A stretch of 64,000 bases of DNA from Candidatus Woesearchaeota archaeon (GTDB lineage: Archaea; Nanobdellota; Nanobdellia; SCGC-AAA011-G17; JAGVXY01). The notes below the pieces were generated by a model. It did no database searches and was not told the DNA's origin. It saw only the letters and a program-made list of their open reading frames with translations. This document shows, piece by piece, positions 33,744 through 63,120 of this stretch. A program made the translations under genes and the position numbers. Position 1 is the first letter of the stretch. Each line of letters opens with the position of its first letter. The stretch is taken from assembly GCA_018303545.1 (NCBI GenBank), contig JAGVXY010000009.1:24350-88349 (forward strand), given 5' to 3'.

Positions 33744-33817
33744 GGGCCCATAGCTTAGCTTGGTTGAGCAACTGACTCTTAATCAGTAGGTCAAGGGTTC
33801 AAATCCCTTTGGGCCCG
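33744..33817 (+). tRNA. tRNA-Lys (anticodon CTT)
   Basis: Hand-folded. Acceptor GGGCCCA/TGGGCCC, D-arm with GG, anticodon stem ACTGA/TCAGT, loop CTCTTAA, T-arm AAGGG-TTCAAAT-CCCTT, followed by an oligo-T terminator. Confidence 0.85.
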
Positions 33818-33964
33818 CTTTTTTAGCAATATCTTCAGATTCGTATCTTCCAAGTTTGAAAGGAAAAAAATATTTAGAATTTGTATTCTCGATGTAGTTA
33901 GAAATTTAATAAGAATACCCTCTCTTTTTTATTTGTGCAAAAAATTATATTCTTTTTTATAAAT

Positions 33965-34555
33965 CTAACGCCTTAAATAGGTTATTACTTCTCTAAAACC
34001 TGCCTTCATAAGCAAGGTTTTATCTTTGTTTGCGGGAATATATGTGAACTGCCTATTGTAAGCAATTATTTCTGGCCCATAAGTCATATTGAATGAAAGC
34101 AAATTAATAGAATCCTTCTTGAAGACTAATCTATCTCGTGCGGACACGGCAAAATTAGCTGCTCCAAGAAATAAAGCAATATCTTCTGGATGAAAATGGC
34201 ATATGCCCTGGTATTTTCCCCTACAAGGAAAAAGTTTAACAGTTGATCTAAATCCCTCTCCAATAAGGCCCAGTTTTTTGCCTGTTCCAATATCTAAAAT
34301 ATTGTTAATTTGAACATAATGCTTAAAGCTCTGCTCCTGCAGCAAAGTACCCCATTCTATCTTGCTTTTTTCAGCGGTTTTTTGTAGAATTCCCTCTAAT
34401 CCAAATAAATCCGTAATCTGTACATATTCTGCAAATTCATATCTGCATTCTTCTTTATATTTTTGTATAAGCTGAATTTCTCTGTTAAGTCTGTATACAG
34501 AACAAACTCGAATAGAATTAAAAAGTATACCCAGCATATAACTCAATGGGTCCAT
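33965..34555 (-). CDS. Hypothetical protein (196 aa), last gene of the nucleotidyltransferase-module operon
   Basis: ORF only. Contains CHFHPED...SARD, but the spacing does not fit the JAB HxHx7Sx2D motif. Confidence 0.35.
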   Translation of the reverse strand: MDPLSYMLGILFNSIRVCSVYRLNREIQLIQKYKEECRYEFAEYVQITDLFGLEGILQKTAEKSKIEWGTLLQEQSFKHYVQINNILDIGTGKKLGLIGEGFRSTVKLFPCRGKYQGICHFHPEDIALFLGAANFAVSARDRLVFKKDSINLLSFNMTYGPEIIAYNRQFTYIPANKDKTLLMKAGFREVITYLRR

Positions 34556-34615: not shown

Positions 34616-34768
34616 TTATTTGATAATTTTTTTATGCTGGGAGCTCCATATTTTATTTGGAGTCTTTTTGACCCATTCAGCATACATATCAATAAACTTC
34701 AGTCTCTCTTCAAAGTTTTGTTCTTTGGATTTTTTCAGTTTATTCAAATCTATATTTAGATTTTTCAT
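34616..34768 (-). CDS. 50-aa small partner protein of the nucleotidyltransferase-like gene (module copy A)
   Basis: Absent from the ORF track (<60 aa). Hand-translated MKNLNIDLNKLKKSKEQNFEERLKFIDMYAEWVKKTPNKIWSSQHKKIIK. ATGA overlap with the upstream gene. Homologous to 61296..61499 (LKFIDMYAEWVKK vs LEYVEFYAEKLKE). Confidence 0.45.
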   Translation of the reverse strand: MKNLNIDLNKLKKSKEQNFEERLKFIDMYAEWVKKTPNKIWSSQHKKIIK

Positions 34769-35364
34769 TTTATATATTTGTTATATTTTTCTTCTATTTT
34801 AAGCTTTCTATTGAATGAATGCATTTTTTCTAAATTCAATTTGTCTTTGAATATTCTAAACAGATATCTTGCATCTTCTATGTCTTTCTCACTGCCCAAA
34901 AATAGTTTATATGATATCTGCAATTCTAATGGAGAAATATAAGTTAAGTTGCCATTTAATATCACCTTAATTCTCGAATTCAATGCCAATTCCCCTATCC
35001 TGTCTTGGGGAAACTTAATTTCCATATTGGGTAAAAATTCGCCCTTAAATGAGAACCTTATCGCATTGTTATTCAAAAGATATTGTTCGTAGGCAGTTTT
35101 TGCATCTTCGGTATTTAAGCATTCAAATTTCTCATATAATTTTAACCACAAATCTTGAAATCTCGTAAAAGTTAATTTTTCAAATAAAAGATCAATGTCC
35201 TCCGATGATCTGCTGCGCCCGAATAATATCGCAACATAACCTGACACTACAACATATTTAATTCCCAAATCATTCAATATTGACACAAACTCTATTGCAA
35301 ATTCATCTAGGGGACTGAGTTCTTTTTTGAATGCAATCTCATTCTCTGAATAATCTAATTCCAT
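34765..35364 (-). CDS. Pol-beta-superfamily nucleotidyltransferase-like protein with helical C-terminal domain (module copy A)
   Basis: VVVSGYVAILFGRSRSSEDIDLLF (a hG[GS]x9-13DhD-type motif). Clear paralog of 61496..62098 across three blocks. Confidence 0.55.
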   Translation of the reverse strand: MELDYSENEIAFKKELSPLDEFAIEFVSILNDLGIKYVVVSGYVAILFGRSRSSEDIDLLFEKLTFTRFQDLWLKLYEKFECLNTEDAKTAYEQYLLNNNAIRFSFKGEFLPNMEIKFPQDRIGELALNSRIKVILNGNLTYISPLELQISYKLFLGSEKDIEDARYLFRIFKDKLNLEKMHSFNRKLKIEEKYNKYIK

Positions 35365-35429
35365 ACATCTTTTAATATTTCAAAAGCAATTTATAAACCT
35401 TGCGCGACCATTTGGCAAGTGAATAGAAA

Positions 35430-35513
35430 CGCCTAGGCAGGGATTCGAACCCCGAAATCCTTGCGGAAACTGGCTCTCAAGGCCAGCGCACTACCAGGTT
35501 ATGCGACCTAGGC
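35430..35513 (-). tRNA. tRNA-Ser (anticodon TGA)
   Basis: Hand-folded from the reverse complement. Acceptor GCCTAGG/CCTAGGC, anticodon stem CTGGC/GCCAG, loop CTTGAGA, long variable arm, T-arm CGGGG-TTCGAAT-CCCTG. 84 nt. Confidence 0.85.
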
Positions 35514-35542
35514 ACTAAAGTAAATCTCCTCAAATAGAATAT

Positions 35543-35809
35543 TTAAACCTTTTTATTTTCAGCTATTTTGAGTATATCCAATTCTTTCATGCCTTTTGCA
35601 ATCAATCTTTTCTTTCCTTCTTTCGCTATCATTTCAAGCTCTTTTATCAGATCTTCTTTTGAGGGAATGTTAATTTTCTTCAGTATTACACTGTCTTTGC
35701 TTCCTATTACTGCAAACACAGTTCCCTCAACCGCATTAAGCTCGCCCCTTATATCTTGGGGAATTACAATCTGCCCTTTCGATGACATTTTTACCGTTTC
35801 AATATCCAT
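35543..35809 (-). CDS. AbrB/MazE/SpoVT-type DNA-binding protein (antitoxin-like)
   Basis: SSKGQIVIPQDIRGEL swapped-hairpin motif. The likely start is the internal Met at 35809, preceded by GGAGGT 7 nt upstream. Confidence 0.65.
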   Translation of the reverse strand: MDIETVKMSSKGQIVIPQDIRGELNAVEGTVFAVIGSKDSVILKKINIPSKEDLIKELEMIAKEGKKRLIAKGMKELDILKIAENKKV

Positions 35810-35997: not shown

Positions 35998-37170
35998 TTG
36001 ATGATAAAAAACTACAAGTTTAGGATTTATCCAAATAAAATGCAGAATAATGCACTGCAAACCACATTGAAACAGGTTAGATTCGTGTACAATAAGCAGC
36101 TAGAACTTAAAATTAAGATATACAAAGATGAAAGCAAAAACCTTTCACAATTTGAATTGAACGATTATTTAATCGAATTAAAGAAAAAATATCCCTTTCT
36201 TCTAAAGCTGCATTCTCAAGTTCTGCAGAATATAAATCAAAGAATCAACTTAGCATTCAAGAGTTTTTACCTCAGGGCAAAAAGAGGCGAGAAGCCAGGG
36301 TTTCCAAGATTTAAGGGCAAGAATAGATATGATTCAATAACTTATCCGCAATCTGGATTTTCATTGAATGACAAGTTATATATTTCAAAAATCGGGGAAA
36401 TAAATATAGTGAAACATAGGTATATCAAAGGAAGGATAAAGACAATGACTATAAAAAGAACTGCTACAAACAAATGGTTTGCATTTTTTACCGCAATGCA
36501 AGAAAATAAACCTAGCAAAATAATCAATAGGCAAATAGTGGGCATAGATCTCGGACTATCTCATTTTTATGCAGATAGCAGAGGGAATATCATAAATAAC
36601 CCAAGATATCTGAGAAACTCTGAGCAGAGATTAATAAAAATTCAAAGGAAACATTCAAGAAAAAGGAAAGGAGGCCATAACAGAAAAAAATCTAGATTAA
36701 AACTAGCTATAATCCATGAAAAGATCACTAACCAAAGGAATGATTTCTTGCATAAGGAATCAAGAAAATTGGCAAATGATTACTCATTCGTTGCTGTTGA
36801 AAAATTATCAATAAAAGATATGTCCAAAAACAGATACTTAGCGAAATCAATTGCAGATGTATCATGGCATAAATTTCTGCAGATGCTTGCTTACAAAGTG
36901 GAAGAAACTGGTGGCAAGCTCGTGAAAATTAATGCTCATGGAACGTCGCAGCATTGTATATGTGGCAATAAAGTAGAAAAGACGTTGGCAATAAGAACCC
37001 ATAGATGCAATAATTGCGGAGTTGAAATTGACAGAGATATTATGTCTGCAATCATTATAGAAAAACTTGCCTTTTTTGGCACTACCGCAGGAAGTGCGGA
37101 AAGTAACGCTTGGGGATATGAAAGGATGCTTTCGTCGGTGAACCAAGAACTCTCTTTGCATTCAAGTTGA
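35998..37170 (+). CDS. tnpB: IS200/IS605-family TnpB (OrfB; RuvC-like RNA-guided nuclease)
   Basis: OrfB N-terminus MIKNYKFRIYPNKMQ, RuvC-like IVGIDLG, zinc finger CICGNKVEKTLAIRTHRCNNCG. 390 aa. Confidence 0.9.
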   Translation: MMIKNYKFRIYPNKMQNNALQTTLKQVRFVYNKQLELKIKIYKDESKNLSQFELNDYLIELKKKYPFLLKLHSQVLQNINQRINLAFKSFYLRAKRGEKPGFPRFKGKNRYDSITYPQSGFSLNDKLYISKIGEINIVKHRYIKGRIKTMTIKRTATNKWFAFFTAMQENKPSKIINRQIVGIDLGLSHFYADSRGNIINNPRYLRNSEQRLIKIQRKHSRKRKGGHNRKKSRLKLAIIHEKITNQRNDFLHKESRKLANDYSFVAVEKLSIKDMSKNRYLAKSIADVSWHKFLQMLAYKVEETGGKLVKINAHGTSQHCICGNKVEKTLAIRTHRCNNCGVEIDRDIMSAIIIEKLAFFGTTAGSAESNAWGYERMLSSVNQELSLHSS

Positions 37171-49336: not shown

Positions 49337-52300
49337 TTACCTGTATGTTTTTACGCGGTATATTACCCAGGCAATTGCTAAGAGTATCAGCAAGATAAGC
49401 AGTATGATTAAGCTTACCTTAGTCCCTGTTCCAATTACCGCACCAGTAATCTGATTTCCTGCATCAGAGATGGCTTCACTATTTAATGCATCAATATCCT
49501 TAGTTTCCTCTGTGTTCGTTGGAATAATCACTGGTTCAGATATTGCAGGTACTATTACAGCAGGCACAGGCACAACAATACTGCTGCCCCCACTGCCGCC
49601 TCCCCCTCCACCGCCGCCAGGCGCCACGTAAGGCGCTGATCCAAATGCCCCAAATAAACTAAAGTGGGTCACATTTGCCCATACATAATCATTTATTGTA
49701 TCTATTCCCTGGTTAGGTTCCAACTGCCAATTTCCTAGAGTTTCATTGAAATAATATATTCTCAATGTATTCTCATCTATCCCTAAGGCATCTAATTCAG
49801 ACTGGTTGTAATAGATTTTTATTAAAGCCCATTCTAATGCCCCTTCTGTGTTTGTATCAATCTCAACATTGATACCTTTCAGATAAGTTAGTCCAGCTGT
49901 TGCCCCAGAAGGATCAACATCTGCGCCAGCAATAGTTACTGTTGATGTTACACTGCTATTTAGATAGAATGTAATATTTGTATCTGCTCCAGGTGCTTCA
50001 ATCTCTGTCATATTATAGGCATCAATCATAGTCTGCAATTGTTCAATTGAAGTCACATTTCCATTCAAATTTATTTCGGGATTATTATCCAAGATGATTG
50101 TGCAGCTTACAAGTTCCAAGACTCCGCCATCAAAAATTATGCCCTGACCATCTGTATCAATGGAAATATTGTTGTTTATGCATTTTGCATTGCCATCAAT
50201 CATCCAATAAACATACATAGGCCTATTATCATAGATACCCCACGCCCCATTGTTATCAAACACACCGTTAGTCAAATGGGCGATAGAATTGCCATCGACA
50301 TACAATCCTGTATTTGCTGGAGGTAGGCAAACATCCATAACACTATCATCATTCGCATTAAATGTAGGATTAATGATAGTCTCTTCAGATGAAACTAGTC
50401 TCATACCCTCACAGTTATATTCTGCTAAGTTATTTTCAAATATATTGCCATTTGAATCAGCGGAGAATATTCCTATTTCATTGTATCGAACTGTATTCTC
50501 ATAGATATTATTGCCTGTTGAACTTCCAATATCAAGGCCATTTCCTATGCCCCCAATGGCAGTTCTTGTATCAAACAAATCACCTGTGTTATTTGCAATA
50601 GTATTGCTGTAGACCTGATTGTTATCGGAATTCGAGAGTCTTATTCCTGCATATAAATTGCCAGTAACTGTATTATCATAAATGACATTCTCTGCAGAAT
50701 ACTTGATATTTATTCCGACTTTTGCATCACGGACCACATTGCCTGAGATTGTGTTGTTATCTGAATTCAGCCTTACATCAATATTGTGCTGGAAAGTACC
50801 TTGTCCATTATTGTTGTGCACATAGTTGTCCAAAATCTGATTATTACTGGACTCCTTCAAATAAATTCCTCTGTCAAAACCCGAAATGGCACAATTCTTA
50901 ACCATAATATCGGATCTGCCTGCAACATAAATCCCATTGCCAGAATCACCGGTAATCGAATGTTTATTGCAGTTCAAGGCAATGTCATCTGCACCAATAT
51001 TTAATCCATTTATTGTTGCACCCTTTCCAGGTAATCTACAGTCAATATCTTTCTCCAATGTCAAATCTTCTTTGATTGTATCTCCGCACTGAACATTGCT
51101 TCCGTCAATAAGATTAACAATGAAAGTATGGCTTGAATCTTCAATTATTGAATTTCCTGCAAGGTCTTCTGCTCCACTTACAGTAATTGTTTCAGTTGTT
51201 AGATCAACTCTTGGCAAAGAATAAACAAAACAGAATGTTTCTGAAAGTTTATCTCTGCAATCATCAACAGTTTGAGCTCCGCCGTCAGGGCTTACTGTGA
51301 TAGCAGGAATATTAGTTATATATTCGCTGAATATTACTCTAATTTCTGGTTGTGAATCCTTATCATATATTACTCCATCAGAGCTTACAGAAACAATAGT
51401 AGGAATTACGGTATCAACAGTGAACCCTGAAACATCAAGGTGCCCAGAATTTCCGGCATTATCTGTAAGTACCAGTGCACAATCCAAATATATGTCATCT
51501 CCTAACGTATTAAAGGTAATAGTCTGTGTTCCTGCAGTATACTCTTGTTCAATTGAGGTGCATGCACCATTAAATTGTAAAAGACCTGCCTCATCTGTGT
51601 TAAAAGTATAATCTGGGGTATTGTCATTGGTATTTACTGGCACAGGAATTATTTCTGTTAAAACCGGTGCAGTATTATCTACAATTACATTTACCTTATT
51701 AGATGAAAAAACATTTCCGGTATTATCATAAGCTTCAACCCATAAGCTATAGGGGCCATCAGCAACAGAAGTTGTATCCCATTCAATGGAATATAAACCA
51801 TTTAAGTCACTATAAATTCCACGGCCTATGAATACATTTGAACCGCCATTCACAAACCAAAAATTAACATAATCGATTTTACTGGCTTTGTCATTAGCAT
51901 CCGCATTGATAGTAATTAGTTTGTTTAAATATTTATTTTCTTCCGGAAAAATTATAGTTGCAACTGGTGCAGTATTATCTAATCTTACATCAATTAATTT
52001 TTCAGGTGTTTCAATATTTCCAGCATTATCAACGGAATAATAAGAAATTGCATAAGTGCCCTCGTCACTTATGGAGATGGAATTTCCAACGATGGGTTTG
52101 GAATCATCAATGGAATAATATGTATTACTGCAACCACTGCCACCAATGCCATCATCACAAGTTAAGGTAATTGTAAATGGATTATTTTGCCAACCACTGG
52201 GAGCGTCATCCGTGGTAGCTGGAGCTGTAACATCTCCTACAACCATCGCACTGCCTCCGCTAACACTAAAAATAATCATAGCTATTAATAAGACTGAAAT

Positions 52301-52381
52301 AAAAATTGATCTTCTATTGTTTGTCATAATCTTCGTCCCCCAACATTTCATTTGATATAATTTTTTCGAAAGCGTAAACAT
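49337..52381 (-). CDS. Giant (1014 aa) surface protein with right-handed parallel beta-helix repeats, Gly-rich stalk and C-terminal TM anchor
   Basis: Signal/TM N-terminus. PbH1-type repeats (NNNGQGTFQHNIDVRLNSDNNTISGNVVRDAKVGINIKYSAENVIYDNTVTGN...). GGGGGGGGSGGSS stalk, then IILLILLILLAIAWVIY followed by RVKTYR. Confidence 0.65.
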   Translation of the reverse strand: MFTLSKKLYQMKCWGTKIMTNNRRSIFISVLLIAMIIFSVSGGSAMVVGDVTAPATTDDAPSGWQNNPFTITLTCDDGIGGSGCSNTYYSIDDSKPIVGNSISISDEGTYAISYYSVDNAGNIETPEKLIDVRLDNTAPVATIIFPEENKYLNKLITINADANDKASKIDYVNFWFVNGGSNVFIGRGIYSDLNGLYSIEWDTTSVADGPYSLWVEAYDNTGNVFSSNKVNVIVDNTAPVLTEIIPVPVNTNDNTPDYTFNTDEAGLLQFNGACTSIEQEYTAGTQTITFNTLGDDIYLDCALVLTDNAGNSGHLDVSGFTVDTVIPTIVSVSSDGVIYDKDSQPEIRVIFSEYITNIPAITVSPDGGAQTVDDCRDKLSETFCFVYSLPRVDLTTETITVSGAEDLAGNSIIEDSSHTFIVNLIDGSNVQCGDTIKEDLTLEKDIDCRLPGKGATINGLNIGADDIALNCNKHSITGDSGNGIYVAGRSDIMVKNCAISGFDRGIYLKESSNNQILDNYVHNNNGQGTFQHNIDVRLNSDNNTISGNVVRDAKVGINIKYSAENVIYDNTVTGNLYAGIRLSNSDNNQVYSNTIANNTGDLFDTRTAIGGIGNGLDIGSSTGNNIYENTVRYNEIGIFSADSNGNIFENNLAEYNCEGMRLVSSEETIINPTFNANDDSVMDVCLPPANTGLYVDGNSIAHLTNGVFDNNGAWGIYDNRPMYVYWMIDGNAKCINNNISIDTDGQGIIFDGGVLELVSCTIILDNNPEINLNGNVTSIEQLQTMIDAYNMTEIEAPGADTNITFYLNSSVTSTVTIAGADVDPSGATAGLTYLKGINVEIDTNTEGALEWALIKIYYNQSELDALGIDENTLRIYYFNETLGNWQLEPNQGIDTINDYVWANVTHFSLFGAFGSAPYVAPGGGGGGGGSGGSSIVVPVPAVIVPAISEPVIIPTNTEETKDIDALNSEAISDAGNQITGAVIGTGTKVSLIILLILLILLAIAWVIYRVKTYR

Positions 52382-52523
52382 TAAATTCGCTCGAACGCAT
52401 ATTAATTTCAGATGAAAATAGGGTGCACCTTAATAAAGTTTTGTATTTATGTTGACTTTACACTAATAACAATAATTTAATACTAAAAATAACCCCTCTA
52501 AAAGAACAAATAAAAAAATAAAT

Positions 52524-53258
52524 TTAATTTAAATTCACACTAAAAGCAACAGGCGCAACAGTCTGAGATTCAGTTGTTATCAAAGATGAAATTTGATCAT
52601 CAGCAATCTCACCGACAAATTTGTATTTACCAATATATTTGTCATACAAATAAACGCCCATCAATCCAGTAGTCTGGCTGTCTTTAGTTATGAATACAGA
52701 TCTTGTGCTCAAAACACCAAAAGGACCATCAAGCTTATTTCCATCAAGTTTCAAAACTTCATAAGGAACAGTATTCTTTGAATAGACAGAAATATACAGC
52801 GCTTCTTGGCCTTCATTGTATTTTGGTGCAATTACTCTGTCTCTTGCATAAGCCATGCCCATTTTTGTTGAAAGCACAACTCTCTCTCCAGGTAAGCCCC
52901 CATTTTTCTTAAGATTGATCAAAACTTCATCTTTAAGCGAATAGCCGTTCTTTCCTGCAGGATTCAATATATGATCCAATTTATCAGTAAAATCAGGAAG
53001 GTACACAGCAACTTTTGACCAGCTTATGTCTTTGCCATTAAGTATAATTTCATCATGCTCAACAGCAGCATTTCTCATGCCAAGTCCAATCAAAAGATTA
53101 TCTGAAAGGCCCCAGTTTGTCTTTATATTGTCTGAGTATATCTGCATCTCAAGTCCAAAAGTTGAGTTATCAACTTTGGCATCAGAAAATGGAGCAAAAG
53201 CAGAAATAACCAGCACAATTGCGGCTAATATTGTTAGTTTAATATTAAAGGTTTTCAT
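52524..53258 (-). CDS. Secreted hypothetical protein (signal peptide)
   Basis: MKTFNIKLTILAAIVLVISAFAPFSDA signal. Same strand as the giant-protein cluster. Confidence 0.4.
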   Translation of the reverse strand: MKTFNIKLTILAAIVLVISAFAPFSDAKVDNSTFGLEMQIYSDNIKTNWGLSDNLLIGLGMRNAAVEHDEIILNGKDISWSKVAVYLPDFTDKLDHILNPAGKNGYSLKDEVLINLKKNGGLPGERVVLSTKMGMAYARDRVIAPKYNEGQEALYISVYSKNTVPYEVLKLDGNKLDGPFGVLSTRSVFITKDSQTTGLMGVYLYDKYIGKYKFVGEIADDQISSLITTESQTVAPVAFSVNLN

Positions 53259-53367
53259 GGGGTTGGATATTAAGTCCTATTTAAATACTTTATGGTAGTT
53301 ACAATCAGTAATTCAGGTTTAAGGCAGAAATGAAGTTATCCATAGTTAAAAACTAAATTAAAAAAAT

Positions 53368-56300
53368 CTAAATTTCTTCTTCAGTATAGATTATATACTC
53401 GCCTAAATTGCCATAAATATCCTTGCACTTAACATAAAACTTGTCATAACTCAATGAAGTCTCATGCACTTTGGAATTATCTCCAGTCATCTTATTCCCT
53501 TCCCCAAATCTGAAATTTTTGTCTCCAGATTCGCAGGAGCAGTCTTCATCAGTCTCAATATATAATGTTCCCTCTGTGAAAATATACATAAGTTTCGGCG
53601 CAGTAGTATCTGCCGTAACCCTAAAGGTAGTATTAGTATTGACTTGGTTTCCTGCTGCATCTCTGCAGGCCACATAATATTTATATTCAGCCATAGGCAA
53701 AATTAATGGCTGTTCATGCAGTGTTTCATTTGTTTTGAAGAAATAAACCATATTCTCAAAAACAGTATCCTTATCAGCGAAAGCGCACATTGCCTTTCCA
53801 TTATCTGCTCCTTTCTCAGTAAGCACTTTTAATGTAACATTATTTGTGTATAATTCTCCTGAAGGCCCAATAGAAACAACTTTCAATGCTTCAGTTCCTT
53901 TCAAGCTAAATTTATAGCTGTCTTCATTAAAGTTTTTTGACATATCTTCACATTTAAAATAATAATTAGTCTCTTGATTTGGTTTTATTCCTGTTAATTT
54001 TGTTTTGCATTCATAGAGCCCACCAAACACTCCGGCTATATCATAAGCTGCGGTGGCGCATTGCATGCTTGTATTCATTGAAATATAATCAACATCATTG
54101 AAATCCCACTTGCATCTCGCAGGCTCACTTACATATACACTTAAATCAGTATCATTTTTATTAGCTGCAATCATTGCTCCATTAGTTAGACTTGTCTGTT
54201 CAATTACCGGCGCTGTTAAATCCGGTGAAGGATCTATCGAGAATCTTACAAAGTAATCATTCTCATTTGCATTTCCCGCTCCGTCCTGGCATCTTATATA
54301 TAGAGTTACAGTATTTCCGTTTACTAATTGTATAACTTGGTTTCCATCTGTATAGCTTGCATTAGGCAGCATTAATTGCGATGACTGATTGTATCTGTAT
54401 AAACTATCCTGCACATAGAATGCAGGCATATCATTATATTTAACAGAATGATTTGCGCTGATTTTGCACTGCGCAGGTTCATTAGTTCTAATTCCAAATG
54501 TTATTGGTTGGAATGCTTTTACTTTTGGCTGTATTTCAAAGCCTGGATTTCCTTGGTAAGTTATTTCTCTTAATGTGTATCCCTCTTTTAATTTTTCAGG
54601 CCATGGTTTTATTATTGGTGCGTTGACATCATTTGGATGCATATTTACGCAAGTCTCATTGTTTCCAGTTCCTGGATTTAATAATGTGCAGTATTTTCCT
54701 AAAGATTTGCATCTGTATTCAGAGCAAGGTTTTATTGGATCCTTATTGCATTCTTCACAGTCTCTTCCACCATCAGGCGCTTCCCATGGTGCGCAGTTTA
54801 CAACAATAGTTTTTGTTTTTTCTGAAGCTGCAACAATATCAACAACTTGATAGATTGTGTATATCCATAACAGTGTATTAAATAATTGCATAAATCCACC
54901 TGCTGCCCCCCCAGTAGAAGAATATTTCGAAACGGATGTTGCCCCTTTCGCATCTGCAGCACTTGAAGCTACTTGATTACCTAAACTTCCATCAGCATTT
55001 ATAGCATACTTATACCATCCATTTTGTGTATTAGTGTAGAGAAAATCTTTTCCAATAAAAACATTGTCTGTACCAAGGTTTCTAATGCCATTAGCCAATT
55101 CTTCTTGTCCTATTGAATTTAATCCTAAATCATAAGTTATTGCTGCCTGTCCAGTCAACCCAAAAGCCTCAGTTCTAACACCAGTTAAAGTAGATTGTTT
55201 GCTAACCATTGCGGCAGAAGATTTTGGTCCGAGGGCGAAACCACTAAATATCTTGTCAATATTCGACCAACCCCATCCCGCGTGACCCCAAGAGGCAATA
55301 CCAGTAAGAGCCATCCATGAAAGTATCATCCATCCGCCTTTCCTATCAAGTTCATCCAACATTCCAGGTTTCTGGTCTTTATATTTATCAGCAGGGAATT
55401 GCAATTCCAAAAATTTAGTAACTTCAGATTTAGTTAATTTCAATCCAGATTCAGTAAACACACCTAAATAATTAAAGTAAGCTCCGCAGTCTCCCTGCGC
55501 AATGCAAGAGGTACTTTGAGCTAGTAGCCAATCTTTTTCTAAGCAGTGACAGTTTCTTACGCATTTCCATTTGTCGCTTATCCCTCCAACAGCAGGAATA
55601 TATTTCCCAATCAATGAAGTCCATCCGCCAGCAGCATAAGTAACCTCACATTTTGATGAAGCTTGTTCACATGCATCAATATTTGTTCCGCCAGTTGGAT
55701 TAGTGCTAGAACTTGAAGTTGAAGTCGCAGCCGCCGCAGCATTTCCCGAACCAGATTGACTAGAACCGGTAGTAAAGCTAGCAGAACCTAAATCATCACC
55801 CCAAAAAGTAAATCCAGGAGGAACCATAGGCACACACTTTCCAGGAGAATCTTTGCTCACTTCATTTCCAGTAGATTTAACGACAGCATCTCCCCACCAA
55901 TAGCAGTCCCTATATTGCAGTTCGGTGCAGCATTTGTATGCATCTTCCAATTTATCAACATAAGAATTCATCGCATCTTCAGAATCAATCTCTTCAAACG
56001 TGGGATCTTCTACATTGCATGCAGCGCAATCAGCCCATCTGTTTTCTCTGCATCTACCTTCAATATATTCTCCTCGGGAAGCAAGCAATGTAAACGAAGT
56101 GCCGGTAGAAAGAGGCTCTGAACCTAAAATACCCTGAACGCAAATCTGTTCCCTATAATCTGCGCAAGGTTCAACAGTAGTCTCACCGTTTATACAAATC
56201 TGTCTGAACTGTCTCGAACCTACAGCATCTCTGCCCCAGCCAGTAGCTCCATCATATAAACACCATGACTCACCATTCTTTTTGTCTCCACCTGAAGCAG

Positions 56301-57108
56301 GAGAACTAGTTTCTTTGTAAACACTTGAGCAGTCAACAGAGTTGCATTTAGCATTTGCTTCATCAACAGCCTTGCATAACGTACCCGAAGCATAATCGCA
56401 GTCTTCAGCGATGTCTTCTGGATTTCCGCATGAATCAAACCAATAAACATCTTCTTTGTAACAAGCTTTATGATGATGAGAAGCGCAGTCGCAGCTTAAT
56501 TTTTTATCTGAACAAAAAGTATCCTTGTGAAAACCTATAGAACTTCCAATATCTGCACTCTGTTCTCCGCAGCTTTCTCTAGCAGTCCATGAGCAGGTAT
56601 CTTGAGAAACGCAGCAGCCCATTTCATTATTTCTGCAAGAATCAACGCATTCTTGTTCAGAAGCAGCATCTTTAAAATCCATCTGCACAAAAGGAAATTT
56701 TTGAGTTTCAGTTTTACAGCGCGTTTGTGTCACATAAGAGCATTCAGTTCCAATAGTGCAGCATCCTCTGGTGCATTTAGGATCATTGCACTCAGGAGAA
56801 GCAAGCCAAACAATTCCTTCGCCTTTGCTTTGCGCAAGAGACCTTGGAACATTTTTGTAGCATACTCCAACTTCTTCATCAACGCCGCATCCTAACTGGC
56901 AGTAACTTGTTTGTTCGCAAGCAGTAGGCGCAGAATTGAAATTAGCATCGCAACTCTTAGCATCAGTATACATGCAATACTCTCCATTAACGGTTTTCTC
57001 GCAGCACCTTAAATCTTGCACAACCGCTTCAGCAGAAGGAGTATACACTGAGAAAATGGAAAAAATTATTACTGTACATAAAAACATCGATGTTATTTTC
57101 TTTATCAA
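53368..57108 (-). CDS. Giant (about 1240 aa) cysteine-rich surface protein with internal hydrophobic segments (paralog 1)
   Basis: TTG start in the ORF track; a likely ATG at 57087 gives a clean signal peptide MFLCTVIIFSIFSVYTPSAEA. About 50 Cys in the first 330 aa. S/T/G linker, two or three hydrophobic segments, then a beta-rich C-terminal domain about 450 aa long. Paralogous to 58030..61089. Confidence 0.6.
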   Translation of the reverse strand: MIKKITSMFLCTVIIFSIFSVYTPSAEAVVQDLRCCEKTVNGEYCMYTDAKSCDANFNSAPTACEQTSYCQLGCGVDEEVGVCYKNVPRSLAQSKGEGIVWLASPECNDPKCTRGCCTIGTECSYVTQTRCKTETQKFPFVQMDFKDAASEQECVDSCRNNEMGCCVSQDTCSWTARESCGEQSADIGSSIGFHKDTFCSDKKLSCDCASHHHKACYKEDVYWFDSCGNPEDIAEDCDYASGTLCKAVDEANAKCNSVDCSSVYKETSSPASGGDKKNGESWCLYDGATGWGRDAVGSRQFRQICINGETTVEPCADYREQICVQGILGSEPLSTGTSFTLLASRGEYIEGRCRENRWADCAACNVEDPTFEEIDSEDAMNSYVDKLEDAYKCCTELQYRDCYWWGDAVVKSTGNEVSKDSPGKCVPMVPPGFTFWGDDLGSASFTTGSSQSGSGNAAAAATSTSSSSTNPTGGTNIDACEQASSKCEVTYAAGGWTSLIGKYIPAVGGISDKWKCVRNCHCLEKDWLLAQSTSCIAQGDCGAYFNYLGVFTESGLKLTKSEVTKFLELQFPADKYKDQKPGMLDELDRKGGWMILSWMALTGIASWGHAGWGWSNIDKIFSGFALGPKSSAAMVSKQSTLTGVRTEAFGLTGQAAITYDLGLNSIGQEELANGIRNLGTDNVFIGKDFLYTNTQNGWYKYAINADGSLGNQVASSAADAKGATSVSKYSSTGGAAGGFMQLFNTLLWIYTIYQVVDIVAASEKTKTIVVNCAPWEAPDGGRDCEECNKDPIKPCSEYRCKSLGKYCTLLNPGTGNNETCVNMHPNDVNAPIIKPWPEKLKEGYTLREITYQGNPGFEIQPKVKAFQPITFGIRTNEPAQCKISANHSVKYNDMPAFYVQDSLYRYNQSSQLMLPNASYTDGNQVIQLVNGNTVTLYIRCQDGAGNANENDYFVRFSIDPSPDLTAPVIEQTSLTNGAMIAANKNDTDLSVYVSEPARCKWDFNDVDYISMNTSMQCATAAYDIAGVFGGLYECKTKLTGIKPNQETNYYFKCEDMSKNFNEDSYKFSLKGTEALKVVSIGPSGELYTNNVTLKVLTEKGADNGKAMCAFADKDTVFENMVYFFKTNETLHEQPLILPMAEYKYYVACRDAAGNQVNTNTTFRVTADTTAPKLMYIFTEGTLYIETDEDCSCESGDKNFRFGEGNKMTGDNSKVHETSLSYDKFYVKCKDIYGNLGEYIIYTEEEI

Positions 57109-57878
57109 CTAGGTTCACCCTCTACAAAAAACTGGAACATTAATCCATCTGTAGTCTGTGTTCTTTTTATCTGGTATAATTTATCAGGATAAGGCCGGTG
57201 TTTGTAAATCATATATTTCCCCGTTTTTGAAAGCATGTATATAAGCTGATCAAAATCTCCAAATTCAGTTTCGACATTTATTATGTCCTGTGAAACATCA
57301 TACAAATCGCCTAAAGGCAAATTAACCATAGTATTGAATTTATTTTCGGTAATTGTAATATCTTTCTGTGTCAGCACAACAGGGTAAGTTACATCAACTT
57401 GCACATTTTCCTTATTTATAATTACCGTTGCCTTTGGCATTCCCTGTCCGCTTACAGTTACGCCTGAAAATATTGATGAAAAAGAATTTACATCTATGCA
57501 TTTCTGCAGATTAAAATTTATCACCTGTGAAAGGTCTTTTTCCATATCTGAAATTGTAAGCATTTTATTATAGCATGTAGGCTGACCCTTAATATTATAG
57601 CAAAGATAGCTTACAGTAGTCCCATTAAATAATTTGTAAGATTTTGGAGTCAGCTGTCCGCCTTTCAAAGCAATCTCTCTTATTGGCCCATTAGCCGATT
57701 CATCAACACATTCTTGAATATGTTCTCTTATTGGCCCAAATTCTGTCTGCACTGTCTCTATAGTAATCGTTCCTGGCAGAATTCTTTCTCTAAATGCCAA
57801 AGTCAGGCCTATTACCCCTACTATTAGAATCCCTAATATAATATAGATTGTTACTTGACCTCTTTTTCCCATTTCCAT
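57105..57878 (-). CDS. Pilin-like protein with class III signal peptide (MEMGKRG|QVTIYIILGILIVGV) inside the giant-protein cluster
   Basis: KRG-Q motif plus a long hydrophobic helix. Lies immediately upstream of giant paralog 1. Confidence 0.5.
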   Translation of the reverse strand: MEMGKRGQVTIYIILGILIVGVIGLTLAFRERILPGTITIETVQTEFGPIREHIQECVDESANGPIREIALKGGQLTPKSYKLFNGTTVSYLCYNIKGQPTCYNKMLTISDMEKDLSQVINFNLQKCIDVNSFSSIFSGVTVSGQGMPKATVIINKENVQVDVTYPVVLTQKDITITENKFNTMVNLPLGDLYDVSQDIINVETEFGDFDQLIYMLSKTGKYMIYKHRPYPDKLYQIKRTQTTDGLMFQFFVEGEPS

Positions 57879-58029
57879 TTTCCCTGAATACCCCTTTCTA
57901 TTTAAATATTTTGATTATGAATATACGATTATTTCAGTCATTGCATTGCCGTATTGATCGATGCATTTCACATGATAAGCGGTTGTTGATAGTGGCGCTC
58001 CATGCAATGTTGTATTTATTCCAGACATA

Positions 58030-61000
58030 TCATATCCCTGACCAAGTCATATTTGAATATTGGCATGTTGTTATTTCGCTCAGTTCAATTCTAAGTTCTG
58101 TGTCTCTGAATATTCCTAATAATAAAGGCGCCGAAGTATCTACAGTTATTCTAAATTTAGTTGCATTGCTGGCAACATTTCCGGCAATATCTGTACATTC
58201 AAAATTATAATTATATTCCCCTAACTTTAATCCTTGCAGTAATTGTCTGTGCACTGAGCTTGAAGTTTCCATCATCTCAATCATGCCTCTTCCTTTTTCA
58301 GCAAAAGAGCATATTGCTTTTCCGCCTTCAGCTCCTCCGAAAGTTCCTAATTTTAATTCTGCGTTTGTTGAATATATCTCTTTTCCCATTGTGGGTTCAA
58401 CAAAAGTTATTTTTAATTCATCAGTGCCAATTACAGAAATTGGATAGCTCTGCTGGTTTGTATTTCCATATCTGTCCTGGCATCTTATATAATACTGATT
58501 TGCTCCTTTTGAAATATTTGGTAAAATTATTAGTGCATTAAATCCAAAATTAGAATAGCTATTAGCGCTCAATCCGCCATACTGCATCAGTTCATAATCT
58601 GTGTCAATTGTATCGACTCTGCAAGTTCCAGGCTCATTTAAAGTTACTGTTAAAGGTGAGTAAGTTACATTAAAAGGTATGAACGCTCCATCTTTCAGGC
58701 TTACATTTTCTATCACCGGGGCTGTTAAATCTGGGCCTTCTTTTGTTTTATATTTTATTACATAATATATGGGATTATCATTTCCTTGATAGTCTGAACA
58801 TTTTATTGCATAACTATATTCTGTATTAGGTTCCATTACGGAAATAGTCATTGTGTGATTTAATCTGAACATCACATCTTCAAAGTAACTTGCAGGCATC
58901 TCTTCGAACTTCTTTGGATATTGTATATCTGCATTCGTATCTACTTTGCATTGTGCAGGCTCTGAAGTCTCAATGCCAAAAGTTATTGGCTTGAATGGAT
59001 CAACTAAAGGTAAAATATTATATCCGGATTGTGCTCCATCTTGAATTTGATATTCTTTATTTAAAACTTCCAACCAAGGTTTTATCATCGGTGCATTAAC
59101 ATCATTCGGATGCGCTACAACACAAGTCTCATTTCCTGTTCCTTCATTTACTAATTTGCAGTCCGCTCCTAAAGATCTGCATTTATATTCAGAACATACT
59201 TTGAAAGGCCCCGTGCATTCCTCGCATTTATTTTCTTTAGGTGCCGTCCACGGAGCGCAGATAGAGGTAAAAATATGTTCATGCTGCTCACTTCCTGAAG
59301 TTACAAGCCAGGTAATTATTAAAATTATCGCTAAAACAATCCAACCCCAAATGGGAATTACACCAAGCCATCCTGAACCAGCCACAACACTCCCCAGAGC
59401 GCCCTTAGCTGCCGCAAGAGCAAGAATACTAATTGTTCCACCTGTAAACGTAACTGCCCCAACCGTTACAGTTGCTGTTGCAAAAACCAAGATATAAATA
59501 GAAATTAAAGTAGCAGCAATTCCACCATAAGCTCCAAATTGATTGATAGTTCCTATTGTGTTCATTTCACTTAAAACAGCATCACTAATGCTACCCAAAA
59601 CATCCATCATAACACTTAAGCCACCATGAACTCCGTAAGTTGCCCAATAATTCCATAAATATTCAGGAACACCACTATATTCTAAATTGCCATCAGCTGA
59701 TCGGACCATCCATTTTGGAGGGCCGCTAGGATCCCAATTATCTTGATAAGCGGATTTTAAATCAAAAGAATCCAAACCGCCTTTGACTAATTCAACATTA
59801 TATGCTGGACCGCAATCTCCCTTGCTCTTGCAATATAATAAAACATTATCTGCAAATTTTTGCTGCAAGGTTTCTTGATTAATTTCATGCCAGTCTGCAA
59901 AAGTATTTTTTTTATAATAAAAATAATGGGCTTCAATATTTGCTTCTGAGCAAGTTTCAGCAACAGTTTCATCTTCAGTATCCCAGAACTTAAATCCTTC
60001 AGGAACAGTAGTTATAGATGTATTCCAATTTTCAATGCAAGCCGCAGCAGCATAAGATCCTCTGTCAGCGCTAGCTTTTCCCTGCAGACAAATTTCTTCT
60101 CTATAATCTTTGCACTCTTCATACACTTCTTCACCATTTATACATAAGTGTCTATAGTGTCTAGAGCCAACAGCATCAGTCCAATTTCCAGTAGGTCCTT
60201 CATAAATGCACCAAGATTCTCCATTCATCCTAAAGCCACCAAGTCTAGCATCATGAACATTCTTCTCATCGGTATAAGTAGAAGTGCAATCTAAAGAAGA
60301 GCAAGAAGCCGTATTGTTATCTATCTGCTTACAAAGTGTCCCTTTGGCATAATCACAATCATCTGCAATCCCTTCCATGTTTCCGCATGAATCAAAATAA
60401 TAAACATCTTCACCGACACATTGAGTTTTATATTGTTTCGTACAGTCACAACCTAAACTTGAATCTGAACAGTAAGTATTAAAATTAAATTGAATACCTT
60501 GACTAGTCAAGGCTTGTCGGCTTTCACAGTCATCCCTAGTTGTCCAAGAGCACTCCCCGAGACCTAGAGAGCAGCACCCATGGTCTTGCCCCTGGCAGTA
60601 GCCAACACATTCTAATTCAGAAGTGGCATCCCTAAAATCCATCGATAAATAAGGAAAATTAGAAACAGCATTTTTACATTCTAACTGGGTAGACATAAAG
60701 CATTGGTCTCCAATTACACAGCAGTTTTTTTGGCATTCAGGAACTTGGCAAAGTGGATCAGCACTAAATAATCCGTCTTTAGAAGCGCAAGTCGGCTGCG
60801 GTGTATTTTTATAGCATGCCCCATCATTTTTATCATAGCAGCAACCTAATTTGCAGAAAGAAGAAGCCTCACAGGACGAAGCGGAAACCCTGTATCCTGG
60901 ATTGCACTGGTCCTGCGTTGTATACTGGCAAGTCTCTCCGCCCTTAGTAATCTCACAGCAGACTTTATTCGCATCCCCATTCGTATTCTCATCTTCAGCA

Positions 61001-61089
61001 TTGACTTCGGAAACAAAATAAGAAAAAGCAACAATGGCAATAATCATAATAAAGCACATGCTCACCGCTTTTTCTTTTAAAAATATCAT
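58030..61089 (-). CDS. Giant (1019 aa) cysteine-rich surface protein with internal multi-TM block (paralog 2)
   Basis: Signal peptide. Cys-rich N-terminal domain alignable to paralog 1 (VCCEITKGGETCQY... vs RCCEKTVNGEYCMY...). Conserved CAPWTAPKENKCEECTGPFKVCSEYKCRSLG module. About 75-aa hydrophobic block. Confidence 0.6.
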   Translation of the reverse strand: MIFLKEKAVSMCFIMIIAIVAFSYFVSEVNAEDENTNGDANKVCCEITKGGETCQYTTQDQCNPGYRVSASSCEASSFCKLGCCYDKNDGACYKNTPQPTCASKDGLFSADPLCQVPECQKNCCVIGDQCFMSTQLECKNAVSNFPYLSMDFRDATSELECVGYCQGQDHGCCSLGLGECSWTTRDDCESRQALTSQGIQFNFNTYCSDSSLGCDCTKQYKTQCVGEDVYYFDSCGNMEGIADDCDYAKGTLCKQIDNNTASCSSLDCTSTYTDEKNVHDARLGGFRMNGESWCIYEGPTGNWTDAVGSRHYRHLCINGEEVYEECKDYREEICLQGKASADRGSYAAAACIENWNTSITTVPEGFKFWDTEDETVAETCSEANIEAHYFYYKKNTFADWHEINQETLQQKFADNVLLYCKSKGDCGPAYNVELVKGGLDSFDLKSAYQDNWDPSGPPKWMVRSADGNLEYSGVPEYLWNYWATYGVHGGLSVMMDVLGSISDAVLSEMNTIGTINQFGAYGGIAATLISIYILVFATATVTVGAVTFTGGTISILALAAAKGALGSVVAGSGWLGVIPIWGWIVLAIILIITWLVTSGSEQHEHIFTSICAPWTAPKENKCEECTGPFKVCSEYKCRSLGADCKLVNEGTGNETCVVAHPNDVNAPMIKPWLEVLNKEYQIQDGAQSGYNILPLVDPFKPITFGIETSEPAQCKVDTNADIQYPKKFEEMPASYFEDVMFRLNHTMTISVMEPNTEYSYAIKCSDYQGNDNPIYYVIKYKTKEGPDLTAPVIENVSLKDGAFIPFNVTYSPLTVTLNEPGTCRVDTIDTDYELMQYGGLSANSYSNFGFNALIILPNISKGANQYYIRCQDRYGNTNQQSYPISVIGTDELKITFVEPTMGKEIYSTNAELKLGTFGGAEGGKAICSFAEKGRGMIEMMETSSSVHRQLLQGLKLGEYNYNFECTDIAGNVASNATKFRITVDTSAPLLLGIFRDTELRIELSEITTCQYSNMTWSGI

Positions 61090-61295
61090 AAAGAGAAAAG
61101 AGAGTTATAGAATATTTAAAGTTTACTCAATCTCATCAACAATCGCATTCATCGGTCTAACTTTCTGCACTGTTCCTTTCTTGCCGCAGAATGGGCAGAC
61201 AGATTCAAAACGATTTCTTCTGAAATTGTATCCGCAGCCAACGCATTGATAGCTTATTTTTTCTTCCATGTTAAAAAATAAATCTTTCTCATTTA

Positions 61296-61499
61296 TTAAT
61301 CTTTCTCAAGCAACCCGATAGCTTTCAAGTATTTTCTTGCATTAGTCTTGAAATCTTCGCCGAACATATTCTTAAATAGGCTCTGGCTTGACTTCAATTG
61401 CGATTCAATCAATATCTTTTGTTGCCTAAACAGAGAGCCATCTTCCTTAAGTTTCTCGGCATAGAATTCAACATATTCTAAATCATTCATAGGCCTCAT
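61296..61499 (-). CDS. 67-aa small partner protein of the nucleotidyltransferase-like gene (module copy B)
   Basis: ATGA overlap with the upstream gene. Homologous to the 50-aa ORF at 34616..34768. Confidence 0.45.
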   Translation of the reverse strand: MRPMNDLEYVEFYAEKLKEDGSLFRQQKILIESQLKSSQSLFKNMFGEDFKTNARKYLKAIGLLEKD

Positions 61500-62098
61500 T
61501 TTAATTCATCCCTTATTATAATTTCATACCTTTTAAAGTTTTCTTCTTTAATCAGGTCAGAAAAGAAAGTTCTCAAATGTTTTGCATCTTCCATATCTTT
61601 TTTGCCAGCCAGTATTATTTCCTTATATAATATTTCAAATTCAATAGGAGGAATCTTAAATTCAAAATCTCCAACTTTAATTTTCTGGGGATGAGAATAT
61701 TCAAAAGATTTGGCCTTCTTGCTCTTATCAAATGGGACCAGTTCTATATTAGGATACATCTTATTAATTTCAGCAAATCTTACGCTATTCATATTTTTAA
61801 TATAAGGATAAACTTCCGTAGAATTATCGCCCTGATAGCACCAAAATTTATTTTCAATCAAATCATTAAATAGAGAAACAAACTTATTTTCATTCATTAT
61901 AGACACTATAATATCAACATCTTCCGTGCCTCTTGCTCTCCCTGTGGAAATGCTTACAAAACCGCTTACAATCAAATAATCCGCATGTTTTTTTAGTACT
62001 TTCAAAAACTTTTTTACAAAGAGATCTAATTCAGTCAATTCCCTGTCAATTACAATTATTCCTCCTTCAACAGAATAGCCTTTCATAAAAAGAATCAA
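61496..62098 (-). CDS. Pol-beta-superfamily nucleotidyltransferase-like protein (module copy B)
   Basis: YLIVSGFVSISTGRARGTEDVDIIV. Paralog of 34765..35364 (IPPIEFEILYKEIILAGKKDMEDAKHL vs ISPLELQISYKLFLGSEKDIEDARYL). Confidence 0.55.
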   Translation of the reverse strand: MILFMKGYSVEGGIIVIDRELTELDLFVKKFLKVLKKHADYLIVSGFVSISTGRARGTEDVDIIVSIMNENKFVSLFNDLIENKFWCYQGDNSTEVYPYIKNMNSVRFAEINKMYPNIELVPFDKSKKAKSFEYSHPQKIKVGDFEFKIPPIEFEILYKEIILAGKKDMEDAKHLRTFFSDLIKEENFKRYEIIIRDELK

Positions 62099-62133
62099 AA
62101 GAATAGGATATATAAATACTTCGCCGACCTATG

Positions 62134-63120
62134 TCAAGTGGATTCAAATACCTGTTCAAGAAAAACAGTAGCATATGAGCCCTTAGGTAAAAAGAATCTA
62201 AATCGCTGGGAACTTCCCTTAAATGGATAAACTTTCAATTTTGTAACTTTAACAATTCCTTCCCTCTTTCCAGCATGTAAATTGTAAAATTCAGTTTTAA
62301 AATCTTTCAACTCAATGCCTTCTTTTTTCAATAGGTTAGTATAAATTTCATCTGGTTTTGAATCAAAGCCTAAAACTTCAACTTCATCAGCAACTTTTAT
62401 TTTAAGATATAAATTAAACAAATAAGCCTGATATGCTTGTAAAAATAAAGTTAGTAATCTTTTAGGTAAAGAGAGCATTGCTTTTTTGTAATCTTTAGTC
62501 TCAGTAAATATTCGAACAACACTGATTTCATTTATTAGATATCTAGGTATAATTTTAAAATCCAATTTCTCTCTTAATTTACGTCTAAATTCTCTGTGAT
62601 CTTTAGTTTCAGTTTCATAATCTCTAAGCACATATTCAAAGAAAGCTTTTTCATAGTCCCTTTTCATTAGATATTTTCCAACCAGATGCGTATTAGCTCT
62701 GAACTCTCCTCCAAAGCGTTGCTGCCCAAAATAATTCACAAATTCATCAGGCACATCTGCGGATTTTTTTAAGCCCCGAACAATTATATCAAAATCATTT
62801 CCTTCGAGCATCCCAAGACCTATTTGTTTGGTGCCATAACCCAAAATCTTAATCGAAATATCTTTTATCTTTACCCTCTTAAGCATATTTTCATATTTTC
62901 TCAAGCATGAAACAAACTGTTCTGTTATTCCTGCATAATCTTTCAATCCTGCATAGCCGAAGTCATTGCATTTAGTTCTTTTAGAAAGTTCATTCAAGGC
63001 TTTCATAGTGGTCCAGTTTTTCTTCTTCAATAAAAAATAAATGTAATTGCCCTTTTCATCAAATTTCAAATCAAGAACCTCTTTAACCTTGAAATCTTCA
63101 GGTTGAAATTTAAGTATCAT
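62134..63120 (-). CDS. truD: tRNA pseudouridine synthase TruD/Pus7-type
   Basis: Catalytic-Asp motif GYAGLKDYAGITEQF. FKVKE N-terminus. 328 aa. Confidence 0.8.
   Translation of the reverse strand: MILKFQPEDFKVKEVLDLKFDEKGNYIYFLLKKKNWTTMKALNELSKRTKCNDFGYAGLKDYAGITEQFVSCLRKYENMLKRVKIKDISIKILGYGTKQIGLGMLEGNDFDIIVRGLKKSADVPDEFVNYFGQQRFGGEFRANTHLVGKYLMKRDYEKAFFEYVLRDYETETKDHREFRRKLREKLDFKIIPRYLINEISVVRIFTETKDYKKAMLSLPKRLLTLFLQAYQAYLFNLYLKIKVADEVEVLGFDSKPDEIYTNLLKKEGIELKDFKTEFYNLHAGKREGIVKVTKLKVYPFKGSSQRFRFFLPKGSYATVFLEQVFEST

Follow-up and report, generated by a model that had tools for sequence, protein, structure and literature searches.

Woesearchaeota and Pacearchaeota are archaeal lineages with tiny genomes, in which a large share of the genes is without known function. 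Here we describe a pair of adjacent genes, which we call module B, located in a 64,000-nt stretch of DNA (the window) from a metagenome-assembled genome (MAG) of Candidatus Woesearchaeota (locus tags J4468_01110 and J4468_00975). The pair encodes an enzyme resembling the toxin MenT1 and a previously undescribed small partner, and it ranks among the best-conserved gene pairs in these two lineages. Those enzymes of the MenT/AbiEii nucleotidyltransferase class that have been characterised are toxins which arrest growth as parts of defence and addiction modules. The reading that we favour, with about even confidence, is that module B encodes a two-subunit MenT-like nucleotidyltransferase, probably directed at the 3' end of RNA, which would have a housekeeping or long-domesticated and non-toxic role and would not be a mobile addiction or immunity module. 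It is favoured because the pair is under extreme constraint, is inherited vertically in single copy, is kept together almost universally, is found in stable fusions, and includes a basic partner. A diverged second pair, module A, with the same anatomy, lies approximately 26.7 kb away in the window.

The AlphaFold2 model of the large protein is confident (predicted local distance difference test, pLDDT, 94.5; predicted template modelling score, pTM, 0.90). In a Foldseek search against the PDB, the top match was the MenT1 toxin of Mycobacterium tuberculosis (E = 1e-6) at 17% sequence identity, followed by MenT3/TglT, 5uvd, LnuA, TM1012 and ANT(2'')-Ia. In the model, the large protein possesses a pol-beta-type nucleotidyltransferase fold that is nearest to the solved MenT structures, and the nucleotidyltransferase identity proposed in the initial annotation of the window, which was made from the sequence alone, is borne out by the AlphaFold2 model, the Foldseek search and the fold comparison. 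A profile of the large-protein family searched against the PDB sequences retrieved nothing beyond a weak match to 5uvd (E = 0.11), and the four window proteins of the two modules have no significant match in Pfam, NCBIfam, PADLOC or PHROGs. The Polbeta match of the enzyme in Pfam is weak (E = 0.07), PADLOC returned just PDC-M21B at E = 0.005 over 40 residues, PHROGs returned none at E ≤ 0.05, and large proteins A and B have no match to PF08843 (AbiEii/DUF1814) at E ≤ 1. The source databases label these proteins "hypothetical". Among 69 diverse relatives (22–36% identity), the only Pfam families matched by several members are the uncharacterised nucleotidyltransferases DUF2204 (PF09970; 7 of the 69, best E = 1e-5) and DUF6036 (PF19502; 5 of the 69, best E = 4e-5), whereas the window proteins themselves match neither. 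Aminoglyc_resit and AbiEii are each matched by a single relative, the latter at 1.5e-3, which is below the gathering score. The literature that was searched contained nothing on DUF6036 or on DUF8150 (the Pfam family to which the small partners are related, see below), and DUF2204 had one incidental mention.

Four residues of the large protein (R52, K155, D164 and D167) are invariant in the 69 relatives, and ten others (G42, G49, R50, D56, D58, R103, P112, E115, E149 and K163) are conserved in at least 90% of them. The active site of MenT1 consists of R37, T39, D41xD43, K137, D149 and D152 (PMC11375011). In the large protein, R52/T54/D56/D58/E115/K155/D164/D167 are conserved with MenT1-like spacing, the equivalence of motifs III and IV being a presumptive one; T54 precedes the first Asp by two residues, as does T39 in MenT1, and Ser or Thr is found at this position in all 63 matched family members. 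Since the conserved residues mirror the MenT1 active site, the enzyme is very probably active.

Of 80 species-representative genomes, 79 have the small gene immediately after the large one, and the two genes are joined by in-frame read-through in one B-type locus (L048). Natural fusions occur in about 15 protein clusters of 249–299 aa, whose C-terminal region is recognized by the profile of the small partner and, in several of them, also has Pfam DUF8150; one of these fusions is located on an 839-kb contig. The AlphaFold2 model of a fusion (overall pTM 0.86) has a disordered linker at residues 189–199 followed by three helices at a pLDDT of about 90, and this suggests that the small domain packs on the enzyme in a defined manner. 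We also considered the small domain as a replacement for the C-terminal helices of MenT3/MenT4, and this was set aside when a fold search with the fusion model gained only modest aligned length. The small proteins of the B type are basic (median pI 9.9, charge +6.5) and the large proteins are mildly acidic. When the small-family profile was searched against the whole PDB, in which MenA1, the antitoxin of MenT1, is deposited in the MenAT1 complex (8an5), no chain was found below E = 0.6. The sole locus of the 80 without a small partner (L051, enzyme gene at 3989..4576) encodes an enzyme that is substituted at three otherwise conserved positions (S41N, P112S and E149G). As separate observations, the enzyme gene of this locus is directly followed on the same strand by a 424-aa open reading frame (ORF), and one fusion of 299 aa (P0396) contains two small-partner-like segments in tandem, the second of which is A-type-like (..QRLEFIDMYSEWLNKT..).

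Modules A and B are diverged members of an old family. The initial annotation had regarded module B as a second, diverged copy of module A with the same two-gene architecture and ATGA overlap, and as an old duplication or independent acquisition; the ORFs at both loci confirm the architecture. Large proteins A and B are 33% identical over 172 aa (E = 6e-24). B-type large proteins comprise 618 database clusters at E ≤ 0.001, the best 120 of which are 63–73% identical to copy B; 2040 clusters pass for the A type, the best 120 being 52–63% identical to copy A. Because each copy has its own orthologs at these levels, against an identity of only 33% between A and B, the divergence of the two copies is considered old, in agreement with the earlier proposal, and sequence comparison places A and B as ancient paralogous groups across Woesearchaeota and Pacearchaeota. 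For the small proteins the initial annotation had named the lack of a significant alignment as what would speak against a common family. BLASTP indeed gave no alignment of small A and small B at E ≤ 100, but profile comparisons show the homology. An intermediate class of modules was found among the genome loci (L082–L086), whose small proteins share ...DRxxFVDxWAxYVxxxPDKxWSKQQNxLINSQ... and link the A and B types. A hidden Markov model (HMM) of this class finds both small A (E = 2.9e-13) and small B (E = 4.2e-8), that of the B type finds small A (E = 1.8e-5), and hhalign of the three classes gave 6e-12 (A and intermediate), 2.4e-6 (B and intermediate) and 2.8e-4 (B and A). The joint alignment has a common core of [FY][IV]xx[YW]Axx[LVM]K......[WF]xxxQxxx[LF]Ixx Q. 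Since profiles and intermediate sequences connect them, small A and small B are judged homologous and too diverged for pairwise detection. Precomputed matches to PF26477 (DUF8150) are found on A-type and intermediate small partners and on fusions; they are absent from the B-type small proteins, which are linked to DUF8150 by profile only, through the above match to the intermediate class. The co-occurrence of A and B in one genome is seen only in the window, and a second genome with more than one pair (L088) has an A-like pair and an intermediate-class pair.

Both genes of the pair are under purifying selection. The ratio of nonsynonymous to synonymous substitution rates (dN/dS) among close pairs is 0.04–0.25 for the large gene and 0.02–0.34 for the small gene, and is 0.12 for the sole pair with unsaturated dS. 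Because the small ORF is directly downstream in 79 of 80 genomes and selection acts on both, the two ORFs of module B are real genes. The enzyme is better conserved than the flanking gene common to the same genome pair in 29 of 29 comparisons (28 for copy B and one for copy A); at one locus (L014) the B-type enzyme is 67% identical and six proteins of the ribosomal cluster are 34–47% identical. In 79% of locus pairs the enzymes have a higher identity than the flanks, and in close genomes the enzyme tracks its flanks (flank 94.6% and enzyme 92.9%; 66% and 76%). The joint profile matches 997 clusters at 50% identity, and at least 562 loci are present in species-representative genomes, nearly all of which are labelled Woesearchaeota, Pacearchaeota or "Nanoarchaeota". 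The pair was also found in an Aenigmarchaeota-labelled MAG (L088, with its two pairs 2.4 kb apart) and in a Methanofastidiosia-labelled MAG. The B type is regarded as single-copy because the 75 best B-type loci fall in 75 different assemblies, and IMG/VR, GenBank phages and PHROGs contained no homolog of the module. This is the signature of slow vertical evolution, the opposite of the diversifying selection that had been read from the presence of two diverged copies; dN/dS values running from 0.04 for the large gene up to 0.34 for the small gene, greater conservation in every one of the 29 comparisons, 75 single-copy genomes and the lack of matches in virus and phage collections all contradict that claim. 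What makes the pair interesting is less the reason for which it was noted than the deep conservation, in the DPANN archaea, of a MenT-like enzyme and its new obligate partner.

Under the two-subunit reading, the mechanism could be as follows. Module B would be transcribed as one short, apparently leaderless operon from its own promoter, and the ATGA overlap would couple the translation of both subunits. The large and small proteins would act as a single physical unit, which in some lineages has become one polypeptide. By analogy with MenT1, the large subunit is expected to bind NTP-Mg2+ (NTP, nucleoside triphosphate) via D56, D58 and E115, with K155, D164 and D167 completing the site, and to add a nucleotide onto an acceptor hydroxyl group, for which the 3' end of tRNA or another RNA is the likeliest candidate. 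The small basic three-helix partner may remain stably bound as a substrate-binding or gating subunit, whose positive charge would complement the acidic enzyme.

Several points weigh against this reading and lead to its strongest competitor, that the pair is a toxin-antitoxin module like MenAT1, in which the toxin would add nucleotides to the acceptor ends of tRNA and block translation, and the small antitoxin would sequester it and/or inhibit it by inducing autophosphorylation of T54. We regard this as possible and the less probable of the two. The nearest characterised relatives of the enzyme (MenT1, MenT3 and AbiEii) are toxins. No neighbouring gene is conserved across 88 loci, the top real neighbour family being present in at most six, and several paralogous pairs can occur per genome, as in the window and in L088. 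Distant homologous pairs (27–33% identity) are found on 12 haloarchaeal plasmids; in the two that were examined (L090 and L091; NZ_CP084474.1 and NZ_CP101157.1) the small partner is present and unannotated (E = 2e-19 and 8e-19), and in L090 a gene with a helix-turn-helix (HTH) domain lies 70 nt upstream of the enzyme. Toxin relatives, the lack of conserved neighbours, plasmid homologs and multiple paralogs are all typical of toxin-antitoxin modules, and the high conservation relative to the flanks could partly come from old horizontal spread within the lineage. In addition, MenT1 (Rv0078A; PDB 8an4/8an5) is the best structural match, and its approximately 195 aa and the 68 aa of the helical MenA1 (Rv0078B) are near the 196 and 67 aa of module B. 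The position equivalent to the phospho-acceptor keeps Ser or Thr, the bicistron is compact, overlapping and autonomous, the only partner-less enzyme is substituted at S41, P112 and E149, and copy A adjoins MazE-like and TnpB genes. In a side observation, the gene table that accompanies the plasmid collection, known to be incomplete, does not list the plasmid small partner (about 3551..3799 in L090; also L091).

A dN/dS of about 0.1 and an enzyme whose conservation is above that of the shared flanking gene in every comparison, ribosomal proteins included for copy B, argue against a toxin, as does the apparently vertical, single-copy inheritance of each subfamily, since a toxin would be expected to decay or to be patchy. 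The gene order is also different: menA1 is encoded upstream of its toxin gene (PMC10435456), whereas the partner in the module lies downstream, and a toxin-first order is unusual for the class. At E < 0.6 the partner is related in sequence to none of the chains in the PDB, MenA1 in 8an5 included, and it is basic rather than acidic. Stable fusions are found on long chromosomal contigs, and PADLOC, PHROGs and the virus collections gave no matches. Compared with MenAT1, to which the enzyme is only 17% identical, the module is archaeal, near-universal, single-copy, under strong purifying selection and also present as fusions. The AbiE and MenAT3-4 systems are more different still in organization, having toxins of about 290 aa and a large HTH-containing COG5340 AbiEi antitoxin encoded upstream, against an enzyme of 196 aa with a partner of 50–70 aa downstream; one of the 69 relatives is weakly AbiEii-like (1.5e-3). 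Because there is no PF08843 match, the partner is downstream and its sequence is unrelated to solved structures, the module is placed, by its sequence and gene organization, outside the MenAT/AbiE family, even if it should turn out to act as MenAT1 does. The literature searched yielded no Woesearchaeota nucleotidyltransferase toxin-antitoxin system. The toxin-antitoxin or immunity analogy drawn in the initial annotation has gained a structural basis, with MenT1 as the closest structure, but the fast, patchy and mobile behaviour that goes with it is not seen, apart from the distant homologs on haloarchaeal plasmids.

A bolder form of the two-subunit reading, which we consider unlikely, is that the pair is no toxin at all and would form a nucleotidyltransferase holoenzyme for RNA (tRNA) 3' ends that is essential and present across the lineage of the DPANN archaea, a MenT-like protein being its catalytic subunit and a basic DUF8150 protein its RNA-binding one. 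In this scheme the A, B and intermediate paralogous pairs would divide substrates or nucleotides among them as the split CC- and A-adding enzymes do, and the MenT/AbiEii toxins would be weaponised relatives, or the pair itself a domesticated toxin. The 3' CCA is not encoded in either of the two tRNA genes of the window, tRNA-Lys(CTT) and tRNA-Ser(TGA), and the organism must therefore add CCA post-transcriptionally. A replacement of the CCA-adding enzyme by the A and B paralogs was considered and is kept just within this holoenzyme proposal, because CCA enzymes have been reported in DPANN archaea, where genomes possess class 1 or class 2 enzymes (2026 preprint). tRNA genes are not enriched in the flanks of the modules; 15 were found in 60 loci, which is near the genome average by a rough estimate.

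It is improbable that the enzyme is a transferase for small molecules or glycans of the LnuA, ANT(2'')-Ia or LicD-FKRP type with an accessory subunit, in which a metabolite, an antibiotic or a cell-surface component would be nucleotidylylated or given a phospho-alcohol. LnuA, ANT(2'')-Ia and TM1012 appear among the structural matches, but MenT1 scores clearly higher in both structure searches and none of the three has significant sequence similarity to the module. Known enzymes of this type work without a partner; these three are single-subunit, act on antibiotics and have a patchy, mobile distribution. Near-universal presence in single copy, with conservation above the level of ribosomal proteins, is not what one would expect of a resistance enzyme, and neither glycosylation nor lipid genes are linked to the module in a conserved way.

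A type VII-like arrangement, in which the nucleotidyltransferase would covalently modify its small partner as MNT AMPylates the HEPN toxin, is formally compatible with an intact active site and with the overlapping bicistron of a nucleotidyltransferase and a small helical protein that the module shares with MNT-HEPN systems (type II/VII), and is very unlikely, since the small-protein classes have no invariant hydroxyl residue (Y alternates with W and S with A), the small protein lacks the Rx4-6H motif that HEPN partners carry and does not match HEPN in Pfam, and the enzyme, at 196 aa, is about twice the size of minimal MNTs (MNTs being about 100–140 aa).

If the favoured two-subunit reading is true, a housekeeping RNA-tailoring enzyme would add a new step to archaeal RNA metabolism and would reveal a kinship between toxins and housekeeping enzymes. 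If the pair is instead a toxin-antitoxin module, it would stand out by its stability and would bring in a new antitoxin class. In both cases the pair constitutes a testable family, whose large subunit falls in no Pfam family and whose small subunit is a domain of unknown function or unannotated, for example on the RefSeq haloarchaeal plasmids.

The coordinates of both modules are summarized in Table 1. The ORF of large B extends over 61496..62098 in the ORF finder listing if a TTG start is taken. All homologs of large B begin with MKGY.., and a TATA-like box stands 30 nt upstream of the ATG at 62086; on these two grounds this ATG is probably the real start, leaving the TTG at 62098 unused. Of 82 homologous loci, 57 have a TATA-like motif beginning between −28 and −30, and that of module B sits inside the 47-nt gap that follows truD, the gene upstream. 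It is thus likely that the mRNA of module B is leaderless and is transcribed from its own promoter in this gap. The promoter analysis relies on the position of the TATA box across loci, a scan for sigma-70 promoters and terminators being uninformative for an archaeon. The large and small genes overlap in 66 of 73 homologous loci, 37 of the 73 having an overlap of the ATGA type.

Table 1. Positions of the two modules and their sequence elements in the window.
Feature	Position	Strand	Remarks
Large gene of module B (196-aa MenT1-like nucleotidyltransferase)	61496..62086	-	ORF and homolog starts
Small gene of module B (67-aa basic helical partner, distantly related to DUF8150)	61296..61499	-	
ATGA stop/start overlap of module B (putative translational coupling)	61496..61499	-	+ strand reads tcat
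TATA-like box TTTATATA of module B	62109..62116	-	30 nt upstream of ATG 62086; putative own promoter
Nucleotidyltransferase motif I/II, S41-D58 (SGFVSISTGRARGTEDVD) of large B	61913..61966	-	Conserved columns; holds T54, D56, D58
Large gene of module A (199 aa)	34765..35364	-	
Small gene of module A (50 aa, DUF8150 type)	34616..34768	-	PF26477 on orthologs (precomputed tables); profile homology
ATGA overlap of module A	34765-34768	-	
TATA-like box TTTATAAA upstream of module A	35390..35397	-	

Module A is flanked on either side by the two tRNA genes, tRNA-Lys(CTT) at 33744..33818 (+) and tRNA-Ser(TGA) at 35429..35514 (-). A 196-aa ORF with an HFHPED motif and without Pfam match (33965..34555, -) also adjoins it. 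Just beyond the module are a small MazE/AbrB-like protein (35546..35809, -; Pfam E = 3e-4) and an IS605 OrfB/TnpB with a Cas12f-like TNB domain (35998..37170, +), and the two together suggest that this patch is locally mobile or rich in toxin-antitoxin genes.

The gene immediately upstream of module B, on the same strand, is truD, which encodes a TruD-family tRNA pseudouridine synthase (62134..63120, -; Pfam E = 5e-72). Downstream, 26 nt from small B and after a T-rich stretch, is a 48-aa zinc-ribbon ORF with two CxxC pairs (61123..61269, -) and weak Ogr_Delta and rubredoxin-like Pfam matches; in two other loci (L001 and L002) the genes just downstream of the pair are different from this ORF. 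The zinc-ribbon ORF separates module B from a cluster of giant Cys-rich signal-peptide proteins of 1014, 1246 and 1019 aa (49337..61089, -; nearest gene 58030..61089), one of which has beta-helix/NosD and bacterial Ig-like domains, the others being almost unannotated. The adjacency to this cluster pointed out in the initial annotation is present in the window, but it is incidental, and a functional link of module B to the giant proteins or to truD was rejected because the adjacency is not conserved in other genomes. A metallo-beta-lactamase-fold gene adjoins the module in L004 (5795..6724, Lactamase_B_4) and in L089 (3362..3928), an anecdotal observation that did not emerge from the 88-locus neighbour analysis; Lactamase_B_4 is the RNase Z-type family.
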